Of a DNA stretch of 16,152 bases, positions 1-14,672 are shown piece by piece; position 1 is the stretch's first letter; the number at the start of each line of letters is the position of its first letter. The notes below the pieces were generated by a model. It saw nothing but the letters and a program-made list of their open reading frames with translations. It did no database searches and was not told the origin of the DNA. The stretch comes from a candidate division WOR-3 bacterium (GTDB taxonomy: Bacteria > Hydrothermota > UBA3072 > B12-G15), in contig CBFGJG010000042.1 of NCBI GenBank assembly GCA_965649055.1, positions 1-16,152 on the forward strand, read 5' to 3'. A program made the translations under genes and the position numbers.

Positions 1-412
1 GATATTCTTCTTCTAATTTCGAAAATATAAGCGATATTTTCTCTATAAACTCTTCTTTATTAAGTTCCTCTAAAGGGTCTTCCGATTTAACCATTTCTAT
101 TTTGTTCATTATTTCCTTTTCACGATTTTTCTTCCTTATAAAACTTATTGTATGGTTATAAGCTATTTTCATAACCCAAGGATAAAATGGATAATTACAA
201 TTATATTTATTTAGTGAACGAAAGACCTTTATAAATATTTCCTGAACAAGGTCTTCTGCATCATCTCTATTTTGAACCATTCTATAAACTAAATTATAAA
301 CTTTCATCTTATACCTCTCAACAATAACAGCATAGTTATCATTATCACCCCTTTTTATTCTTTCTATCAATATTTCATCTTTTTCATTACTTAAATACGC
401 AAAATTTTTCAT
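1..412 (-). CDS. ECF (sigma-70 family) RNA polymerase sigma factor, 3' end truncated by window edge
   Basis: Not in the ORF track. Hand translation from ATG at 412 gives 137 open codons to the edge: MKNFAYLSNEKDEILIERIKRGDNDNYAVIVERYKMKVYNLVYRMVQNRDDAEDLVQEIFIKVFRSLNKYNCNYPFYPWVMKIAYNHTISFIRKK... Region-2 signatures DAEDLVQE and FxxWxxxIAxN are present. Exact start uncertain. Confidence 0.92.
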   Translation of the reverse strand, partial: MKNFAYLSNEKDEILIERIKRGDNDNYAVIVERYKMKVYNLVYRMVQNRDDAEDLVQEIFIKVFRSLNKYNCNYPFYPWVMKIAYNHTISFIRKKNREKEIMNKIEMVKSEDPLEELNKEEFIEKISLIFSKLEEEY

Positions 413-421
413 TTTATTCCC
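394..421 (-). promoter_or_regulatory. Putative ECF-type promoter GGGAAT-N16-CGTATT overlapping the sigma start
   Basis: -35 GGGAAT at 421..416, 16-nt spacer, -10 CGTATT at 399..394. Fits the general ECF consensus (GGAA(C/T) ... CGT). Confidence 0.4.
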
Positions 422-426
422 GTAAT

Positions 427-3234
427 TTATCTCCAATCACCAAAAACTGCAAATGGTGCCCAGTAAAATGGTTTATCATAGAATTCCTGTTTCTTTAACC
501 ACCTCTGTGCATCACATAATGCCTTTGTTTTGTCTTTTGACTTTAAATTTTTATAGAAATTCATCATTAAAAGAACTGTTGCATCATCACTAACCTTCCA
601 TAATGATGCAACAACTGAAGGAGTTCCAGCATATATAAAAGCCCTGCTTAATCCTGTAAGTTCATCACCAATGAAACCTGACTCTGAAAATCCTCTTAGC
701 TGTCCTGTTTCACATGCAGATAATGTTATAAGATATGCATTTAATTCCAAATTGAATATTTCTTTTACCTTTAGTTCCCCATCGTTCTCTTCATCTTTAG
801 AGAGTATTATTCTTGATTCCATTGCAGAATCACCCGGTGCAAGTTTACCGTGAGTTGCAAAATGAACTATATCAAAATCTTTAACATTTTTCTTCACATT
901 TGTCTCTGTTGGAAAAGAATTTGAGAGTGAATCATCTGAAAAAATCTTAATATTTTTTGTTAATCCAATCTTTAATATAGAATCTTTTTCTCCTATAGTT
1001 CCATTTAAAGGCATATCAAACCACGCTGGATGCTCTCTAAATTTGGACTTTGCGAAAATAACGAATGATTCCTTTTTGAGTTTATTTTTATTCCTTGCAA
1101 TTAAATATACTGAGGAAGATGGCGCGTAAAAAATATCGAAATTGTCAATAATAAGTTTTTTTGTCTCAGGATCAATAACAATTGTTGAAAAAGGAAGATT
1201 GTGTAAAGAGCCATAAGGAATAATACATAGTCTTTTTTTATCTTTTATCTCATCCCATACAGGCTTTATCAATTTATTAAAAAACCATTTAGATAAATCC
1301 AAAAAATCATTATCATCAAAACTTGAAGGCATCCTTATAAAATCACGATAATCTTTAATTTTTTGATAAATTTCATTTGGTTTCGCATCTATTTTTCTTA
1401 TACATAATTTATTACTTGTTATTCCAAATACATAGGCATTTTCAAAACCTACAAAATATTCAATGATTGCTGTTTTGTCATCAAGAATTTTTTGAACCTC
1501 TTTTACATCAATAGGTTTTTTAGATTTCAGTATATTATAATCTGGGAATTTTTTAGACAATTCTTTTATTATCTTGTTATGTTCAATTATAGCACTTGTC
1601 TGTTCAGGAAGTCCTGTAAGGAATTCTATCTTCCTTTCAAGTTCCTGTTCCTTCTTTATAAGTTCTTTAATCTCTATAGAAAGGTCCTCCCTTTCAGAAA
1701 TATCAATACCTCTAAGTAAATCAAGAAATGCCCTTGATTTAGCATTTTCTGCATAATAAAATGAGTTTTTTGCATCACCTTTTTTAAAATAAAGTTCAAT
1801 AAGCATCTCGTAAATGAATATCTTGTTTTCAAAGAATGCAGATTTAAATTCCTGTCCTGTCAGTTTACCCCTGAGATTTTCAACCATATCAACTGCCATT
1901 TTTAATGAATTTATTGCCTCATCAGTTTCACCTGATTTATAAAATGCAAATCCAAGATTTGAAAGTATTGACAATTCCCAATCCTTTCTTTTACTCTTTT
2001 CAGCAATCTTAATTGCTTCTTTATAGTAATCTATTCCTTTCTTATAATCACCTTTTATAACGTATAGATTTCCTAAATTACAGAGAACCTTTGTGATTCC
2101 AACAGAATCCATTGTTAACTTATAAATATCAAGGGATTTTTCATAATTTTCAATTGCTTTATCGAATTCTCCTTTTCTTTCATATGCAATACCTAAATTA
2201 TTAAAAAACAATCCTTCATCTTTTTTATCCATTATAATCTGTCTTGAAAGATTAAAATAATAAATTGCAGTATCAAGATATATACTTTTTGCAGGTGCCA
2301 ACAGTATATACGAATAGCCTATACTGAATAAAGCCTCTATCTCCCATGTTTCGTTTTTTGTATATTTAAATATTTCATAAGCATTTTTAAAATTTTCAAT
2401 CCCCGCATGGTATTTTCCCATATCAACTAATAAATTCCCAATATTAATCAGAATCTCGCCTTCACCAATAAGTATTCCTCTTTCACCCTTCAATTTCCGT
2501 ATATATATCAAAGCATTATTAAGATACTCATAAGATAAATCATAATCACCAAGTTTTCTTAAAATATTTCCCATCTCTCGATAAGCATCAGCTGCACTTT
2601 TATAAAGTCCAAGATTTAATGAAAGAGAGCAGGAAAGACCAAAATATTTCATTGCACTGTCAGGTTCGCCTTTTTTTATAAAAATACTTCCTATCAAATA
2701 TGAACCGTCTATAATCCCTTTTTTATACCCTATTTTTTCTGAATTCTGGATAACAGAATAAAGCGTTTTTTTACCTTCTTCAAAATTATCCTCAGTAATA
2801 TATATATTCCCAAGCATAAGATAAACATTAATCTCATCTATTTTATCTTCTATTGATTTCTCTTTTATCTTTTGATTCATCTTTAATGCTTGATTAAAAA
2901 AATCTTTTGCCTCATAAATATTATTTTGATAAAATGAAAGGCTTCCTAAATTAATGTAAATCTTTGTAATACCTGGATAATACTTCTCACTTTTAAATAT
3001 CTTCAAAGCCTCATTATAAAATTTCTTTGATTTTTCTATATCACCGAAAGAAAAATAGATGTTTCCAAGCCCTTTCAGACATACCCCTCTTTCTATACCT
3101 TTCGCATTAATAAGAACCTCGTTATATAAACTTTCAGCCTTCAAGAAATGTTGTGAGAAAAATAATGAATCTGCTTCCTTTAATCTTAAATCTAAATATT
3201 CAACAGATAAGATTAAAATGTAATTTATCAACAT
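427..3234 (-). CDS. TPR-repeat + CHAT (caspase-like cysteine protease) domain protein
   Basis: Many TPR units (e.g. FFNNLGIAYERKGEFDKAIENYEKSL, LCNLGNLY, LSNLGFAF) and the linker AENAKSRAFLDLL. CHAT motifs IIPYGSLHNLPF, VHFATHG (His), LITLSACETG (Cys), VVASLWKVSD and PFYWAPF. SD GGAG 9 nt upstream of the ATG. Confidence 0.95.
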   Translation of the reverse strand: MLINYILILSVEYLDLRLKEADSLFFSQHFLKAESLYNEVLINAKGIERGVCLKGLGNIYFSFGDIEKSKKFYNEALKIFKSEKYYPGITKIYINLGSLSFYQNNIYEAKDFFNQALKMNQKIKEKSIEDKIDEINVYLMLGNIYITEDNFEEGKKTLYSVIQNSEKIGYKKGIIDGSYLIGSIFIKKGEPDSAMKYFGLSCSLSLNLGLYKSAADAYREMGNILRKLGDYDLSYEYLNNALIYIRKLKGERGILIGEGEILINIGNLLVDMGKYHAGIENFKNAYEIFKYTKNETWEIEALFSIGYSYILLAPAKSIYLDTAIYYFNLSRQIIMDKKDEGLFFNNLGIAYERKGEFDKAIENYEKSLDIYKLTMDSVGITKVLCNLGNLYVIKGDYKKGIDYYKEAIKIAEKSKRKDWELSILSNLGFAFYKSGETDEAINSLKMAVDMVENLRGKLTGQEFKSAFFENKIFIYEMLIELYFKKGDAKNSFYYAENAKSRAFLDLLRGIDISEREDLSIEIKELIKKEQELERKIEFLTGLPEQTSAIIEHNKIIKELSKKFPDYNILKSKKPIDVKEVQKILDDKTAIIEYFVGFENAYVFGITSNKLCIRKIDAKPNEIYQKIKDYRDFIRMPSSFDDNDFLDLSKWFFNKLIKPVWDEIKDKKRLCIIPYGSLHNLPFSTIVIDPETKKLIIDNFDIFYAPSSSVYLIARNKNKLKKESFVIFAKSKFREHPAWFDMPLNGTIGEKDSILKIGLTKNIKIFSDDSLSNSFPTETNVKKNVKDFDIVHFATHGKLAPGDSAMESRIILSKDEENDGELKVKEIFNLELNAYLITLSACETGQLRGFSESGFIGDELTGLSRAFIYAGTPSVVASLWKVSDDATVLLMMNFYKNLKSKDKTKALCDAQRWLKKQEFYDKPFYWAPFAVFGDWR

Positions 3235-4059: not shown

Positions 4060-4617
4060 TCACTTAACATCCTGTTGCTTACACTTATGTTCCTGTTTCT
4101 GTTCCTCGGTGCATTTGTGTTCCTGTTTTTGTTCTTGTGTGCACCTGTGTTCCTGTTCTTTTTCCATTACTTTCTTTATTATCTTTTTTCTTATCTCTTC
4201 TTTCCCGCAGAATAACCAATGTTTTGCTTCTTTTGCCTTCTCTTTTGGAAGTAGTTTATAAACTGAAATTTTGAAGTTCAGTATCTTAAGTTCCATATCG
4301 TTCTTCAGTTGCTGTATCTCTTTCCATTTAGCCTGAAATTTCTCAATCGAGAAATCATCCTTTCTTAAAATATCCATCAGTTCCATCTCTTTCTTCTCAA
4401 TATTATATCTCGCGTCAAGCATTTCCTTTTGATGTTGATACCAGAGGTCTTCAATCTTTGTCTTCAAATCAGCACCAATTTCAAGCTTATCCATCATCTC
4501 CTTAAGCATCGGTGTATGGGGACCCATTGCTAATTCAATAACTTCTTCCTCATTCACAATATCCTGTGCTAAGACTGTGAAAGGGATAAAAGCAAAAGCC
4601 AATAATAAATACTTCAT
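4060..4617 (-). CDS. Secreted Spy/CpxP/ZraP-like helical periplasmic protein with His/Cys-repeat tail
   Basis: Canonical signal peptide MKYLLLAFAFIPFTVLA|QD and a long amphipathic helical body with Spy/heavy-metal-sensor-like patterning (KIEDL..., YKLLPKEK). SD AAGGAGG. Family assignment is by resemblance and context. Confidence 0.7.
   Translation of the reverse strand: MKYLLLAFAFIPFTVLAQDIVNEEEVIELAMGPHTPMLKEMMDKLEIGADLKTKIEDLWYQHQKEMLDARYNIEKKEMELMDILRKDDFSIEKFQAKWKEIQQLKNDMELKILNFKISVYKLLPKEKAKEAKHWLFCGKEEIRKKIIKKVMEKEQEHRCTQEQKQEHKCTEEQKQEHKCKQQDVK
4081..4160. repeat. ~2.6 copies of a 30-bp in-frame tandem repeat (T-x-E-Q-K-Q-E-H-[KR]-C)
   Basis: Units acacttatgttcctgtttctgttcctcggt / gcatttgtgttcctgtttttgttcttgtgt / gcacctgtgttcctgttctt start at 4081, 4111 and 4141. 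Confidence 0.9.
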
Positions 4618-4628
4618 AGAACCTCCTT

Positions 4629-5045
4629 TTAAGGTTTAAAGTTTACTGGTTTTCTTAAATCTCTCATCAAAATTCCTCTTATAAAAGCCTTCCTCATATC
4701 TGGTGGCATGTCTTTTGATGTCTCAATTATATGCCTTATAACTTTTTCCCTCATCTCAAGTTCAAGCTGAATGATCTCTTCTGAAATCTGAAATGCAAAA
4801 TCACTATCACCCTTTGTAATAGCAACAATTAAAAGTTCATCTTTCCTTATCTTTTCCTCCATAAGTGGTGCCATTTCTTTCCTGAATTTATCTATCTCAG
4901 GTTTAATCATATGATACGAAACAAATCTTGAGAAATATCTTGCATTCCTTCTAATGGTTATGTATCTACCTATTGCAAAACCAGCACTAACAGATACAAC
5001 ACAAATAAGAATTATAATTAAAATATTAATAAGTTTATTCTTCAA
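4629..5045 (-). CDS. Membrane-anchored periplasmic heavy-metal-sensor-like protein (CnrX/Metal_resist-like)
   Basis: TTG start with SD GGAGGTG, one N-terminal TM helix, helical body ending IRHIIETSKDMPPDMRKAF (LxPEQR-like). Lies directly behind the sigma/anti-sigma pair. Confidence 0.6.
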   Translation of the reverse strand: MKNKLINILIIILICVVSVSAGFAIGRYITIRRNARYFSRFVSYHMIKPEIDKFRKEMAPLMEEKIRKDELLIVAITKGDSDFAFQISEEIIQLELEMREKVIRHIIETSKDMPPDMRKAFIRGILMRDLRKPVNFKP

Positions 5046-5337
5046 AGTAAATCACCTCCTCGGTTAATGTTATATATTCCTGATATTTATATGAGTTTTT
5101 ACCAACATAAATACCAAGTAGTATAAGTATTAATGAAAAAACAAATGCAGGGTAAAGGATAGGTATCATTCTTCTTTCTTTCTTATATGTAGGGAGATTA
5201 TCAAGTAGTCTCCAAACCTTTCTATATTCATTATATTCTTTGCGAAGTCTTCTATCAGGTAATATGGATAAAAAAATAAAAATTCTTTTTATAATATTCT
5301 TTTCCCCGGTAATTAACTCAAATATCTTTTTTTCCAT
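5035..5337 (-). CDS. Putative single-TM anti-sigma factor
   Basis: Overlaps the ECF sigma stop by 20 nt, SD GGAGGT. Cytoplasmic N-domain with EYNEYRKVWRLLDNL (anti-sigma-domain-like helix), then one TM (ILYPAFVFSLILILLGIYVG). Confidence 0.7.
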   Translation of the reverse strand: MEKKIFELITGEKNIIKRIFIFLSILPDRRLRKEYNEYRKVWRLLDNLPTYKKERRMIPILYPAFVFSLILILLGIYVGKNSYKYQEYITLTEEVIYFEE

Positions 5338-5800
5338 TACTACCTCCTATATAAGGCTCAAGATAAATTTTTAATTTTTCAAGTGTCCTCATCAATATAA
5401 TCCTGCTGTTTTCTTCTGAAATATTCAGTATATCTGAAATCTCCTTATGTGAAAGGTTTTCAAATTTTTTCAGGGTAATTATAGCCCTTTCTTTTGGCTC
5501 AAGTTTCATCATTGCCTTTTGGACAACTTCCTTTATTTCTTTTTTTAATAAACAGGATTCAGGGTCTTCTTCTTCTAAGAATAATTCATAGGTCTTGGAA
5601 TTATTCTTAACAAGATTTATAGACTTATTTGTTGCAACCTTCATAAGCCATGCCTTTATATTACCTTCAGGTTTTCTTTTTTCATACTCAAGTATTGTAT
5701 CTTGAAGTATATCCTCACTATCAGCTATATTCCCTGTTATCCTGTAACTTATACTTAATATCATATTTTTATATCTCCTGTAAATTTCCTCTGTGTTCAT
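5318..5800 (-). CDS. ECF RNA polymerase sigma factor
   Basis: Region 2 (DSEDILQD, KAWLMKVATNKSIN) and region 4 (LEPKERAIITLKKFENLSHKEISDIL). Confidence 0.93.
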   Translation of the reverse strand: MNTEEIYRRYKNMILSISYRITGNIADSEDILQDTILEYEKRKPEGNIKAWLMKVATNKSINLVKNNSKTYELFLEEEDPESCLLKKEIKEVVQKAMMKLEPKERAIITLKKFENLSHKEISDILNISEENSRIILMRTLEKLKIYLEPYIGGSNGKKDI

Positions 5801-5810
5801 TCTATATAAT

Positions 5811-5838
5811 ATAACATATAAAGAATTGATTTGTTACA
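5811..5838 (-). promoter_or_regulatory. Putative autoregulatory ECF promoter TGTAAC-N16-TGTTAT
   Basis: -35 TGTAAC at 5838..5833, 16-nt spacer, -10 TGTTAT at 5816..5811. Lies 10 nt before the sigma ATG with no SD in between. Confidence 0.55.
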
Positions 5839-5851
5839 ATTTTTTGAATTT

Positions 5852-7895: not shown

Positions 7896-9749
7896 CTACT
7901 GTGAAATAACCTTAAATTCTACCCTTCTATTCCTTGCTCTTCCTTCCCTTGTTGTATTTGGTGCAATAGGCATAGATTCACCATAACCTTTAGCAATAAG
8001 CCTTGATGCTTCAACACCACGCTGAATAAGATAATTTCTTACAGCGTTTGCCCTGGATTCTGATAATCTTAGGTTATAACTATCAGAACCCTGTGAATCA
8101 GTATGTCCACCAATCTCAACAACAACAGTTGTGTTTGCTTTAAGCAGTTCTGCAATGTTGTCAAGGATAGGATAAGAAGTTGGTAGAATCACTGCACTTC
8201 CTGTTTCAAAGTTAATATCATTGAAAACAAGAACCTGTTTCTCTTTAAGTTGTTCATATAAACCAATATTTTGTATCGTTGTTTCTTTATCCTTTATAAC
8301 CACCACTATTGTTTGCGGAACATATCCATCCGCTTCAATCTTTACATTGTAAGTCCCTTCTTTCAATTCCTTCTTGAATATACCTGTTTCAATATCTGAT
8401 GTGATTGGTTTTTCATCAGTTCCAAGGAATGTTATCTTTGCGGCGATTGGTTTCTTTGACCTCGCATCTGTAACAGTTCCGGTAAATGTTCCTACAGGAA
8501 TATATATTTTCTTTAATGTCTGGTCAATATTTATAGTTTGATCTGCTATTATATTTATAGTTCCTTGTTTTGAAATATAACCATCCTTAACAAGCTTGAA
8601 ATTATAAGTTCCCGGTTTAAGTTTTATTGTGACCTTGCCAGTGATATCTGTTGAATATGGTTGAATAGTAGTATCCTCAAAGATTATATTAGCCATCAAA
8701 GGTTCATCCGTTTCCATATCCTTAAGACTTACTATTAGTGTTCCTTCTTTTGGTTTTGGTGGTGGGGGAGGTGGAACCTCTTTCTTCCTCTCTATTAACG
8801 CATTTGTTGTAGTGAAACCAAATGTGAATTTCCATTTACCTGATTCGTTGAAATAATCTTCTCTATTTCTGTAATCCCAATCAGGGACCATATCTATACT
8901 ATTATTCATCAATGAATATTCCCCACCAAAATCAAATGTAACACCCACTGGTGTTGTAAACCTTATACCTACCATACCCATAAGTGTATCCTTAATATTT
9001 ATATCTTTAAGATGAACATTCCCCTTAACTCCAAGAAGGAACCTTGTAAAAGGGCCTGCCCAGAGTTCAACACCAGCACCATAAAGAAAACTATTAGTAT
9101 TATTCATTGAATCAAGCGCATTAAAATAGTCATTCAAAGTATCATATTCTGTAAACCTATCCCTTACACCACGCTTAAAATATCCAAGATTCCCATGTAT
9201 CATTAAAGGAAAGATCTCAATATCTATTAGAAAATCACCTTGGTAATCTGCCCTGTGGGTGTTAGTAGGATAGAAATTTCCATTTTTAACAGCATCTTCA
9301 ACTCTTCTCTGGATAATAGTCGTTTTACCAGCACCATGAAAACCTACGAATATACCAACAGGAATTCTTGGTGTGTCATTCAAAACTGGTATTGAAAGTT
9401 TGAAACCACCATAGATATTCTCATTTCCAGGATTCCCCCAATCACGTTGATAGCCGGCATCACCGTCTTTTCTTTCCTCATATTTTACATAGAAAGTTCC
9501 ACCAAAATACGCTTCAATGTAATCGAGTATTCCATAAGCAAGCCCTACATACCCTTTTGCAAAATGATGGTCAACATCATATGTTGTTACAGTATCAGTA
9601 TACCTTTCGAGATAATGCTGTCTTGTATACTGGATACCCGAAAAGAAACTCAGGTTTGCCATAGGAAGAGAACGTGCTGAAATTATTGTAAAGGAACCTG
9701 AAGGTCCGGTTAGTGAAGGATATGAAAACAATAAAACCAATCCTAACAT
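7896..9749 (-). CDS. OmpA-family outer-membrane protein (putative N-terminal beta-barrel, poly-Pro linker, two carboxypeptidase-regulatory/PEGA-like domains, OmpA_C)
   Basis: C-terminal INFETGSA, IGGHTDSQGSDSYNLRLSESRANAV, GYGESMPIA and GRARNRRVEF. PPPPPPKP linker. Aromatic alternating beta-strand pattern in the N-half. SD GGAGG 7 nt upstream. Confidence 0.9.
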   Translation of the reverse strand: MLGLVLLFSYPSLTGPSGSFTIISARSLPMANLSFFSGIQYTRQHYLERYTDTVTTYDVDHHFAKGYVGLAYGILDYIEAYFGGTFYVKYEERKDGDAGYQRDWGNPGNENIYGGFKLSIPVLNDTPRIPVGIFVGFHGAGKTTIIQRRVEDAVKNGNFYPTNTHRADYQGDFLIDIEIFPLMIHGNLGYFKRGVRDRFTEYDTLNDYFNALDSMNNTNSFLYGAGVELWAGPFTRFLLGVKGNVHLKDINIKDTLMGMVGIRFTTPVGVTFDFGGEYSLMNNSIDMVPDWDYRNREDYFNESGKWKFTFGFTTTNALIERKKEVPPPPPPKPKEGTLIVSLKDMETDEPLMANIIFEDTTIQPYSTDITGKVTIKLKPGTYNFKLVKDGYISKQGTINIIADQTINIDQTLKKIYIPVGTFTGTVTDARSKKPIAAKITFLGTDEKPITSDIETGIFKKELKEGTYNVKIEADGYVPQTIVVVIKDKETTIQNIGLYEQLKEKQVLVFNDINFETGSAVILPTSYPILDNIAELLKANTTVVVEIGGHTDSQGSDSYNLRLSESRANAVRNYLIQRGVEASRLIAKGYGESMPIAPNTTREGRARNRRVEFKVISQ

Positions 9750-9775: not shown

Positions 9776-9848
9776 TGAGCCGTGCAGGAATCGAACCTGC
9801 GACTCCCGGCTTAAAAGGCCGGTGCTCTACCTGCTGAGCTAACGGCCC
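9776..9848 (-). tRNA. tRNA-Lys (anticodon UUU), CCA not encoded
   Basis: Reverse complement reads GGGCCGTTAGCTCAGCAGGTAGAGCACCGGCCTTTTAAGCCGGGAGTCGCAGGTTCGATTCCTGCACGGCTCA. Acceptor, D, anticodon (CCGGC-CTTTTAA-GCCGG) and T arms all fold. Followed by CTA. Confidence 0.97.
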
Positions 9849-12132: not shown

Positions 12133-13407
12133 CTATCCTCCTTTTTTATAATCAGGTTTCTGGAAACTATATTCAAAACTTGTATAATGTTTGTACCTGT
12201 TTTCAATCAATGCAATAACATCTTCTATGAATACTATCTCTTCATCTGTTGGTATTACAAAAACTTTTATTTTTGAATCATCCGAAGAGATAACAAATTC
12301 TTTATCTCTGCTTTTTGCATTATTATTCCTTTCAATATCAATCTTTATCCCCAATTCATCAAGTTCTTTTAATGCTTCATATCTTAGCTCAGGCCACATT
12401 TCCCCAACTCCAGCAGTGAAAACAATTGCATCAACATGCCCTAAGACAGCTGTATAAGCACCTATGTATTTTCTTATTCTGTAAGCCTCTATCTTGAATG
12501 CAAGAATTGACCTTTCGTCACCCTCAGAAATTCCTGTCTCCACATCCCTTCTATCGGTATACTTTCCAGTAATACCCAGAATACCACTCTTTTTATTCAA
12601 AATATTTATTACCTCAGATGCAGAAATATTAAGTTTTTCGGAAATATAACCTATAATTGCAGGGTCAATATCTCCACTCCTTGTTCCCATAACAACGCCT
12701 TCAAGTGGGGTGAAACCCATAGATGTATCAACTGATATGCCTTTCTTTATTGCTGTTATACTTGCCCCATTACCTATATGACAGGTTATAAGGTTAACCT
12801 CATCCGGTTTTTTACCAAGAAGACAGGCTGCTCTCCTTGAAACATAAAGATGACTTGTTCCATGAAATCCATATCTTCTTATTCCGTATTTCATATACCA
12901 TTCATATGGAACTGGATAAATATACGCATAGTTTGGCATTGTCTGATGGAATGCAGTATCCATCACTGCAATATGGGGTATATCAGGAAGAATTTCCATT
13001 GCGCTCTCTATACCCAAAACATTAGGGGGATTATGTAAAGGTGCAAGGTCTGATAGTTCTTTAAATTTATCAATAACCTCTTGTTTTATTATCACTGATT
13101 TTGTAAAAACCTCACCACCATGAACAACTCTGTGTCCAACTGCTATAATCTCTTTTCTATCCTTAAGGATTCCTATTTTAGGATCTTCAAGAACTTTCAA
13201 GATCAATTTAATAGCCTCTTTGTGTGTTGGACATTCTTCTTCAATCTTAATCTTATCATTACCAGTTATCTCGTGTTTTATAAAAGAACCACCAACTGTA
13301 ACCCTTTCTACAATACCTTTTGCTAATACTTTTGATATATCACAATCAAACAGAGAATATTTTACAGATGAACTACCACAATTTAATGTTAATATCAATC
13401 TACCCAT
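12133..13407 (-). CDS. ackA: Acetate kinase
   Basis: LNCGSSSVK, GHRVVHGG, LAPLHNP, DTAFHQT, RRYGFHGTSH, DTSMGFTPLEG, FTAGVGE and IPTDEE. Confidence 0.97.
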   Translation of the reverse strand: MGRLILTLNCGSSSVKYSLFDCDISKVLAKGIVERVTVGGSFIKHEITGNDKIKIEEECPTHKEAIKLILKVLEDPKIGILKDRKEIIAVGHRVVHGGEVFTKSVIIKQEVIDKFKELSDLAPLHNPPNVLGIESAMEILPDIPHIAVMDTAFHQTMPNYAYIYPVPYEWYMKYGIRRYGFHGTSHLYVSRRAACLLGKKPDEVNLITCHIGNGASITAIKKGISVDTSMGFTPLEGVVMGTRSGDIDPAIIGYISEKLNISASEVINILNKKSGILGITGKYTDRRDVETGISEGDERSILAFKIEAYRIRKYIGAYTAVLGHVDAIVFTAGVGEMWPELRYEALKELDELGIKIDIERNNNAKSRDKEFVISSDDSKIKVFVIPTDEEIVFIEDVIALIENRYKHYTSFEYSFQKPDYKKGG

Positions 13408-13811
13408 CTCTCCTCCCCGAAGAAAAATTTTATCTCCCTTTCTGCACTTTCAGGTGAATCCGACGCATGAACAGCGTTAACTGTTACATTCGTTCCATAA
13501 AGTTTTCTTATTGTTCCATCTTCTGCCTTGGAAGGGTCTGTAGACCCAACTATATTCCTTATCCTTGTAACTGCATTTTCACCTTCTATTCTTATTGCAA
13601 CAACAGGACCCGTAAGCATAAAATTTATAAGTCTTTCAAAGAAAGGTTTACCTCTATGGATTTCATAGAATCTTTCTGCCCTTTCTTTTGTAAATTTTTC
13701 CATTTTTATGTTTGTTATTTTAAAATCATTTCTTTCAATAATTCTAATTATCTCTCCAATCAGAGATCTCTTGACTCCATCAGGTTTGATCATAAGTAAG
13801 GTTTCGCTCAC
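13395..13811 (-). CDS. ndk: Nucleoside-diphosphate kinase
   Basis: TLLMIKPDGV, FYEIHRGKPFF, GTIR and NAVHASDS (phospho-His). GTG start. Confidence 0.97.
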   Translation of the reverse strand: MSETLLMIKPDGVKRSLIGEIIRIIERNDFKITNIKMEKFTKERAERFYEIHRGKPFFERLINFMLTGPVVAIRIEGENAVTRIRNIVGSTDPSKAEDGTIRKLYGTNVTVNAVHASDSPESAEREIKFFFGEERWVD

Positions 13812-13817
13812 ATTTTT

Positions 13818-13845
13818 ATTTTAGGATAAAAGATTTTTATGTCAA
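13818..13845 (-). promoter_or_regulatory. sigma70-type promoter for ndk operon (likely leaderless)
   Basis: TTGACA (13845..13840), 16-nt spacer, TAAAAT (13823..13818), 6 nt, then the GTG start. Confidence 0.75.
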
Positions 13846-13884: not shown

Positions 13885-13912
13885 GGAACCTTTTTTTGAA
13901 ACTGTTCGTCTT
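13885..13912 (+). promoter_or_regulatory. ECF/sigmaE-type promoter GGAACC-N16-CGTCTT
   Basis: GGAACC at 13885-13890, 16-nt spacer, CGTC at 13907-13910. Matches the widely seen ECF consensus GGAAC-N17-CGT. Confidence 0.65.
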
Positions 13913-13917
13913 TATAA

Positions 13918-13974
13918 TTGCATAAAGACCTCCTTCCTTTTAATATATACGGGAGCCTCCGGGCTCCCATTTTT
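13918..13974 (+). ncRNA. Candidate ECF-dependent small RNA with anti-Shine-Dalgarno seed
   Basis: Bounded by an ECF promoter and an intrinsic terminator, with no ATG. Contains CATAAAGACCTCCTTCC. The 5' end is estimated from promoter spacing. Confidence 0.6.
13951..13974 (+). terminator. Intrinsic terminator with c(UCCG)g tetraloop
   Basis: GGGAGCC-TCCG-GGCTCCC followed by ATTTTT. The UNCG loop and U-tract both point to the + strand. No + strand CDS lies upstream for it to terminate. Confidence 0.8.
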
Positions 13975-14009
13975 ATTGACTTTTTTTTTATATATATTAA
14001 AAAATTAAT

Positions 14010-14672
14010 ATGAGATTAAAAGCAGACCTTCATATACATACAAGAAATTCTTATGATTCTTTAAATAGTATTGACAAAATTATCCAATTTGCAAAAAGGA
14101 AGAATTTAAATGTAATAGGTATAACAGACCATAATCATCTTACAATTTACCCTGATTATAAAAATATTAAAATTATATTTGGTGAAGAGATAAAAACAAA
14201 GAATGGAGAAATTATCGGATATTTTTTAAAAGAAAAGATAAGAAAAGGAATGACAATAATGGATACAATAAGGGCTATAAAAGAACAAGAAGGTATTGTT
14301 TGTGTTCCACATCCTCTTGATAGAATTAGACGTTCAGCTATAGGTATAGAGACATTAATGAAGATAATAGATTTTGTAGATATCATAGAAGTATTCAACG
14401 GAAGAACAACCTTTCTTGAAGATAATCTTAATGCTTTAAAAATTGCAAAAGAATACAAAAAGAGTATGAGTGTTGGAAGTGATGCACATATACCCTTTGA
14501 AATAGGTTCCTGTTCATTCGAGATAGACGATTTTAATTCTAAAGACGAATTTTTGAATGTCTTAAAAAATCCCAAAATAAATATGGGATTAAGTCCTTTT
14601 GTTGTTCATATTCCATCAACATTTGCAAAATATTATAACAGGATCGGGAATTTGTTCAAAAGATATAAATAA
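14010..14672 (+). CDS. PHP-domain metal-dependent phosphoesterase
   Basis: DLHIHT, ITDHN, GEEI, VPHP, EVFNGR and GSDAH. The 3' end overlaps the convergent kinase gene by 17 nt. Confidence 0.92.
   Translation: MRLKADLHIHTRNSYDSLNSIDKIIQFAKRKNLNVIGITDHNHLTIYPDYKNIKIIFGEEIKTKNGEIIGYFLKEKIRKGMTIMDTIRAIKEQEGIVCVPHPLDRIRRSAIGIETLMKIIDFVDIIEVFNGRTTFLEDNLNALKIAKEYKKSMSVGSDAHIPFEIGSCSFEIDDFNSKDEFLNVLKNPKINMGLSPFVVHIPSTFAKYYNRIGNLFKRYK

Follow-up and report, generated by a model that had tools for sequence, protein, structure and literature searches.

The intergenic unit between ndk and a PHP-domain gene of a candidate division WOR-3 bacterium (genome G000) is very probably a genuine small RNA (sRNA) gene, and sequence comparison indicates a real and conserved sRNA family, apparently not described before, that belongs to one order of an uncultured phylum. 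The unit lies in a window of 16,152 nucleotides, which is the whole stretch of DNA analysed. The RNA is likely to act in trans by base pairing and to repress exported-protein mRNAs, giving a sigmaE-like envelope/protein-stress response a repressor arm that works without Hfq. Its free 5' end mirrors the Shine-Dalgarno (SD) sequence and start codon of many secreted-protein messages, and it therefore probably lowers their synthesis under stress. Sequence anatomy, conservation, promoter identity and target enrichment are established. A preliminary description of the locus had proposed a trans-acting sRNA of about 57 nt with an ECF promoter and a seed mirroring an initiation region, and conservation now lends support to that proposal.

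Table 1. Features of the candidate sRNA locus and its neighbours, in window positions
Feature	Position	Strand	Basis
-35 box GGAACC, ECF-type promoter	13885..13890	+	GGAAC invariant in 17/17 aligned homologues and in syntenic orthologues; same box before C2 ECF sigma gene
-10 box CGTCTT	13907..13912	+	GTCT invariant in 17/17 aligned homologues
Predicted sRNA, ~57 nt	13918..13974	+	Predicted +1 (8th base after GTC); 3' end placed by the hairpin and its T-tract
Seed core: anti-AUG CAT, 4-nt spacer, anti-SD ACCTCC	13921..13933	+	ATA and ACCTCC invariant in 17/17; anti-SD-like run continues to 13941
Predicted intrinsic terminator: 7-bp stem, UCCG loop, T-tract	13951..13974	+	Fold; stem kept in orthologues with UUCG loop
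ndk (PF00334), divergent neighbour	gene 13395-13811; with promoter 13395..13845	-	Own sigma70 promoter 13845-13818
PHP-domain gene, downstream neighbour	gene 14010-14672; with promoter 13976..14672	+	Own sigma70-like promoter 13976-14005

The GGAACC-N16-CGTC promoter, the seed, the 7-bp stem with its TCCG loop and the U-tract were all found where the preliminary description had placed them (Table 1). The two boxes (GGAACC, 13885-13890; CGTC, 13907-13910; 16 nt between them) form the sole GGAACC-N16-CGTC in the 2.08-Mb genome. The composite pattern gave 0 matches in 8 Mb of order-3 Markov sequence, and a reversed control pattern matched 1 of 272 genomes. The sRNA +1 was placed at 13918 because ATG or TTG stands 7 nt after GTC, a leaderless-like start, in 21 of 23 sigma-gene promoters (read by eye). 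The seed sequence, CATAAAGACCTCCTTCCTTTT (13921-13941), has a predicted mean unpaired probability of 0.90. The hairpin (13951-13968) has seven pairs, six of them G-C, and a TCCG loop followed by A and five T; it is the only structure in the predicted fold of 13917-13976 (-16.6 kcal/mol, z -3.0). In sequence and predicted fold, the locus is a stand-alone short non-coding unit with an intrinsic terminator, as is characteristic of sigmaE/ECF-dependent repressor sRNAs. The terminator does sit between divergent genes, ndk (-) and the PHP gene (+), whose own sigma70-type promoters fall outside the sRNA unit. The ndk start codon lies about 6 nt past its -10 box, and both genes look leaderless (13811-13845, 13976-14010). 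One RNA run from the same study had no read cover at the locus, which is evidence neither way. A DNA palindrome over the -10 box and seed was considered as an operator and rejected, being imperfect or absent in other members.

The promoter, of the general form GGAAC-N17/18-GTC, is, by sequence, the same in kind as the autoregulated promoter of an ECF sigma factor, a second trait of sigmaE-class sRNAs. Autoregulation is established behaviour of ECF sigmas. Sigma-70 region 2 has eight matches in the genome, and one ECF sigma gene (C2:46072-46533) carries GGAAC-N17-CGTC directly upstream. Its operon (C2:46031-47892; L125:3032-4893) codes for the sigma (sigma70 r2/r4), a zf-HC2 anti-sigma and a trypsin+PDZ (HtrA-like) protein. 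The GGAAC/GTC promoter precedes the C2-type sigma in 23 of 24 homologous loci, the exception being a more distant paralogue, whereas neither ECF gene in the window has such a promoter upstream; the earlier suggestion that one of these two drives the RNA was not borne out. Because the promoter is shared with the C2 sigma's own autoregulated operon, the C2 ECF, which lies outside the window, is probably the cognate sigma and would drive the RNA. The best profile for this sigma is SigE PRK09647, below cut-off, and its best solved relative is SigE. With a matrix made from 30 promoters of other genomes, the window promoter is the top G000 match at 26.8 bits, and the only three intergenic matches above 17 bits belong to the window RNA, the sigma gene and a second RNA copy on contig C65; four in-gene matches score as high or nearly so. 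The same promoter is found in relatives before hsp20, a grpE-like gene and polysaccharide-type genes (identities read from protein starts).

The two ECF genes of the window have surroundings of their own. At 4060-5851 (minus strand), an ECF sigma is grouped with a small membrane protein and a pair of helical exported proteins, of which one is weakly Spy-like; upstream of this sigma is another ECF-like promoter shape (TGTAAC, 16 nt, TGTT) near an SD-less ATG. At 2-3234 (minus strand), a TPR-CHAT protein is followed by an ECF sigma, a CHAT/sigma pair cut by the contig end.

At E<=4e-6, a model that includes G000's own sequences detected homologues of the RNA in 21 of the order's 24 genomes. A model from a sister family alone returned the two G000 copies as its only two G000 matches (E 0.014 and 0.041). 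The second copy (C65:7646-7742; L002/L095; E 4.7e-14) sits between glnA and an exported-protein gene and has the same boxes and seed with an unrelated hairpin; its orthologues occur in L417, G002 (L077) and G003 (L123). Among the 24 genomes, no RNA match was obtained in G001 (98% complete), G018 (73%) and G023 (62%), although in G001 the sigma gene and its promoter are present. A metagenome scan gave 30 loci, and metagenome orthologues of the window copy lie between ndk and the PHP gene (L408/L424, L414); in orthologues the promoter spacer has diverged, whereas GGAAC, GTCTTTAT, seed and stem persist. Neighbour genes vary between lineages. Conservation of the hairpin without promoter and seed had been named beforehand as the outcome that would speak against an sRNA; the opposite was observed, with promoter boxes and CCTCC seed kept (Table 1) while the hairpin sequence changes. 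Covariation of the stem, which had been suggested as a check, is seen in the sister family: 97% of cells are paired and 4 of 11 pairs are changed on both sides, a level reached in 4 of 500 shuffles by a statistic that ignores kinship.

Beyond these members the family was not traced. BLASTN of the unit against 60 relatives gave no clear homologue, the unit is absent upstream of ndk in three genomes of the same family, and a model search of 126 other genomes of the phylum gave two weak matches, both rejected, and none convincing. A contig-database pattern scan found at least 117 loci; once filtered for hairpin and ORFs, the matches listed comprised known-type members only, plus two weak loci (L203, L232), and no Fusobacterium record was among the 80 titles listed. 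One contig-database member, L251, comes from a record labelled candidate division TA06. L203 and L232, from unrelated taxa, combine the promoter-seed pattern with a weak hairpin and are not covered by a long ORF; they are probably chance matches. Weak model matches in G023, G064, G122, G133 and others were discarded on inspection. Nine pattern matches outside the order, and likewise one each in G002 and G003, were attributed to chance, positions within ORFs or the reverse of true gene starts. Rfam gave no match at the locus (E<=5) and none relevant in eight homologous loci (E<=1), in keeping with the preliminary description, which had recognized no named family. Searches of mainly open-access literature, main texts only, returned no description of this RNA.

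Two features of the sister-family loci were noted separately. A motif, ACTGAT..TCGTGTAAAAAATCTTAAA, is strongly conserved across genera (L080:1600-1680 and equivalents); it sits between a sigma70 promoter and hsp20 and may be a repressor operator or leader element. Also, the loop of sister-family hairpins (e.g. L080:1573-1583) is C-rich and might serve as a second anti-SD seed of the FoxJ kind.

Targets were predicted from gene calls by a simple script, which also supplied the starts (1945 ORFs; 1834 of at least 80 aa used; 1812 without starts near contig ends), and signal peptides were scored by a hydrophobicity rule. In G000, 17 genes pair in register with all 13 bases of the seed core, including C12:2766, C20:12382, C4:4558 and C57:8149. 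Fifteen of the 17 are signal-peptide-like, compared with 437 of 1834 genes (24%). TIGR04183, the T9SS type A sorting domain, is matched over cut-off by 10 of the 17, two of which are cut by contig ends, versus 44 of 1795 others; among signal-peptide genes with GGAGG, the figures are 10 of 15 perfect partners versus 13 of 177. Each of the 18 non-self perfect sites across the genome lies at the start of an ORF. The upstream regions of the perfect partners are not copies of one another (1 of 136 pairs is more than 70% identical). The mean duplex energy of these partners is -24 kcal/mol with the sRNA versus -12.5 kcal/mol with the 16S tail. Ranked by duplex energy, the top 25 genes hold 17 exported ones (25 flank shuffles: mean 6.9, maximum 11; plain 16S-tail probe: 13 in its top 25), and in the top 100 the best shuffle, with 52 exported, exceeds the real seed, with 46. 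The window seed spacer ties for best among the 256 possible (8 tied). Of the TIGR04183 genes, 12 of 54 pair at 12 or more of the 13 bases and 42 pair at fewer.

Other copies and lineages gave a mixed picture. The C65 copy has one perfect partner, a protein without signal peptide, and at 12 or more pairs 21 of 28 partners are exported. In G002, which has another seed spacer, the eight perfect sites correspond to four TIGR04183 proteins, one exported barrel-like protein and three that are neither. Lineage-matched spacers were seen in two homologous target pairs (L406 with C48:5807; L152 with C57:6014 and C20:10274), while other homologous pairs (L151, L153/L166) lack a spacer match. Even in genomes whose own seed does not match it, the all-U spacer marks exported genes (5 of 6 such sites), so a U-rich start region may be present in exported genes on grounds unrelated to the RNA. 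For the sister-family seed, each genome offers 0-3 perfect non-self partners; of 12 partners tested, 10 were signal-peptide-like.

Across G000 there are 61 TIGR04183 matches over cut-off. A SprA-like frame of 1765 codons (C2:76254-80042) scored below cut-off and PorV had no match in G000, so that any T9SS-like export route of this genome would be atypical. Within the window, a tRNA (9776-9848, minus strand) lies directly upstream of an OmpA/carboxypeptidase-regulatory-domain gene (7896-9749); the start region of this gene forms 12 pairs with the seed, out of register (-18.4 kcal/mol, rank 139).

The RNA might instead be a general anti-SD brake that damps SD-led initiation broadly, with SD-less or leaderless mRNAs such as that of the sigma gene escaping and the exported bias reflecting strong SDs only. 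Pairing is indeed widespread, since 444 of 1812 start regions reach -15 kcal/mol or better and 73 reach -20. The anti-SD is the only strictly invariant part of the seed when G010, which has lost the anti-AUG, and G007 are counted, and about 133 of 1812 G000 genes look leaderless (5-60 in shifted controls), as does the sigma start in the 21 of 23 loci mentioned above. However, the start region of the sigma gene itself still pairs at -16.4 kcal/mol with the sRNA in free pairing, and the exported enrichment persists within GGAGG genes (29 of 45 at 12 or more pairs versus 165 of 482 others, p 1.4e-4). The TIGR04183 enrichment, moreover, is tied to the SD-start spacing of 5 nt that the seed encodes (17 of 143, versus 7 of 234 and 1 of 72 at neighbouring spacings), and a general brake is judged unlikely. 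A cis-acting leader or attenuator is more improbable again: the inspected loci have a distinct TTGAC promoter beyond the hairpin, the downstream genes differ within the window copy's family (the PHP gene; an exported protein) and the PHP gene of the window has no SD. Such a leader would require transcription from the ECF promoter to pass a leaky hairpin (reaching hsp20-degP in the sister family), with the anti-SD folding onto the start of that gene or onto the GGGGTTG after the hairpin. It would suit the sister-family unit, which is closely followed by hsp20 and a DegP-like gene and preceded by varied genes, as well as the weak T-tracts and, in some members, read-through folds in which G-runs further downstream pair with the seed.

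The reading frames bear on two further explanations. Taken literally, the earlier statement that the unit has no ORF fails, given a TTG frame of 31 codons from the predicted +1 on the plus strand and SD-ATG-CAA-TTA-TAA on the minus strand; it stands in the sense that neither frame is conserved, and on comparative grounds a peptide gene can be dismissed. Counted from the predicted +1, plus-strand frames range from 1 to 36 codons, with the seed in all three registers. This variability also counts against a protein-binding decoy, in which a mimic of the 16S tail would titrate an anti-SD-binding factor or a 5' AUG/UUG would capture 70S as a leaderless mini-message. The RNA does have ACCTCCTT in its seed in common with this genome's own 16S 3' tail, and 16 of 20 copies start with ATG or TTG at the predicted +1, for which we have no explanation; yet the anti-AUG has no 16S counterpart and is held at a fixed distance in most members, which leaves the decoy with very little likelihood. 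Slightest of all is the probability that the signal belongs to the minus strand, whether as a remnant of a type I toxin/antitoxin system, as a decayed gene or as the SD and start of a mini-ORF. On that strand SD-ATG-two codons-TAA can be read in each of the G000 copies, but across 16 members the ORF runs from 3 to 90 codons with no kept sequence, no minus-strand promoter lies upstream, the ndk promoter is downstream of the ORF, and the T-tract and the ECF boxes both have plus-strand orientation. As for a toxin, the 18 non-self perfect sites show no small hydrophobic toxin-like ORF, save one signal-peptide-like ORF of 37 codons near a contig end.

For the trans-acting repressor, which is the preferred reading, we infer transcription, sigma dependence, repression and the stress signal from the sequence evidence. 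Once released, the C2 ECF sigma would transcribe its own mostly leaderless operon, as the identity of the promoters suggests, together with the window sRNA and its C65 paralogue. The RNA would consist of a single-stranded 5' part, read directly from the sequence, and a predicted terminator hairpin. Its seed would form one helix over the SD, spacer and AUG of GGAGGU-YUUU-AUG mRNAs, out-compete the 16S tail and block 30S loading. Most of the target mRNAs would code for large exported proteins, among which a T9SS type A sorting domain is frequent, and because of this the export load on Sec and the outer membrane is proposed to fall. Neither Hfq nor ProQ would be required. Hfq (PF17209; positive control worked) and ProQ were each found in 0 of 5 genomes, whereas KhpA/B was found in 5 of 5, and these proteins are candidate helpers of the sRNA.

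The seeds of MicA, RybB, MicL, VrrA and MicV are not known to be copies of the anti-SD. In other respects these RNAs of enterobacteria (MicA, RybB, MicL) and Vibrio (VrrA, MicV) resemble the window RNA: a sigmaE repressor arm, a 5' seed plus terminator hairpin and exported-protein targets are described for them (PMC9546586, PMC11005410). They are Hfq-dependent according to PMC9546586, whereas Hfq is absent from all five genomes here; in addition, no Rfam family such as those of MicA, RybB, MicL or VrrA was matched at the locus. The AbcR1/AbcR2 and NfeR1 RNAs of Sinorhizobium meliloti likewise have anti-SD seeds and repress many mRNAs for exported or periplasmic (transporter) proteins, and AbcR2 is also under an alternative sigma, RpoH1 (PMC8844928). 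They are multi-hairpin RNAs with two or three aSD motifs that belong to the Hfq network and are described without an anti-AUG register (PMC8844928); the window RNA has one seed, one hairpin and no Rfam match.

The closest parallel is FoxI/FoxJ of Fusobacterium nucleatum, a sigmaE-dependent pair of sRNAs that repress envelope proteins in a host without Hfq or ProQ, according to PMC9546586 and PMC11005410. Like this pair, the window RNA has a sigmaE-type promoter (AAC/GTC boxes), and it would be one of two sRNAs per regulon and act by translational repression of envelope proteins (PMC9546586, PMC11005410); with FoxI it shares a linear C-rich seed and an Hfq-free host (PMC11005410). The differences lie in the phylum, in the absence of any Rfam or model match here outside one order, in a seed that spans SD, spacer and AUG in fixed register, in a sigma operon of the form sigma/zf-HC2/HtrA, and in the predicted partners, which are TIGR04183 proteins rather than the porins and autotransporters named for FoxI/FoxJ. 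On the best reading, the RNA works like FoxI and constitutes a separate family, set apart from FoxI/FoxJ by their descriptions.

An sRNA repressor arm is documented for sigmaE-type responses of Proteobacteria and Fusobacterium (PMC9546586), and the present family adds a conserved candidate for such an arm from an uncultured phylum. Since the sigma, promoter, start site, seed and ranked targets are specified, E. coli reporters can be used to rebuild the complete circuit. The finding bears on how targets may be found without Hfq, namely by one long in-register helix over SD and AUG, and on how an anti-SD seed gains specificity. The RNA would also be an sRNA link to T9SS-type cargo, of which the literature searches returned no report. 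A more far-reaching and distinctly tentative idea, which we consider possible and on balance doubtful, is that of a shared address code. Exported T9SS-type cargo genes of this lineage would all begin with one start signature (SD, fixed 5-nt spacer, AUG) evolving in step with the spacer of the seed, and one chaperone-free 57-nt RNA could thereby shut off a whole secretory class; its sigma would start without an SD, and the ECF regulon here would be little more than its own operon and two such RNAs. If that were true, this family would, together with the Fusobacterium case, point to anti-start-site sRNAs having arisen more than once as repressor arms in ECF responses.
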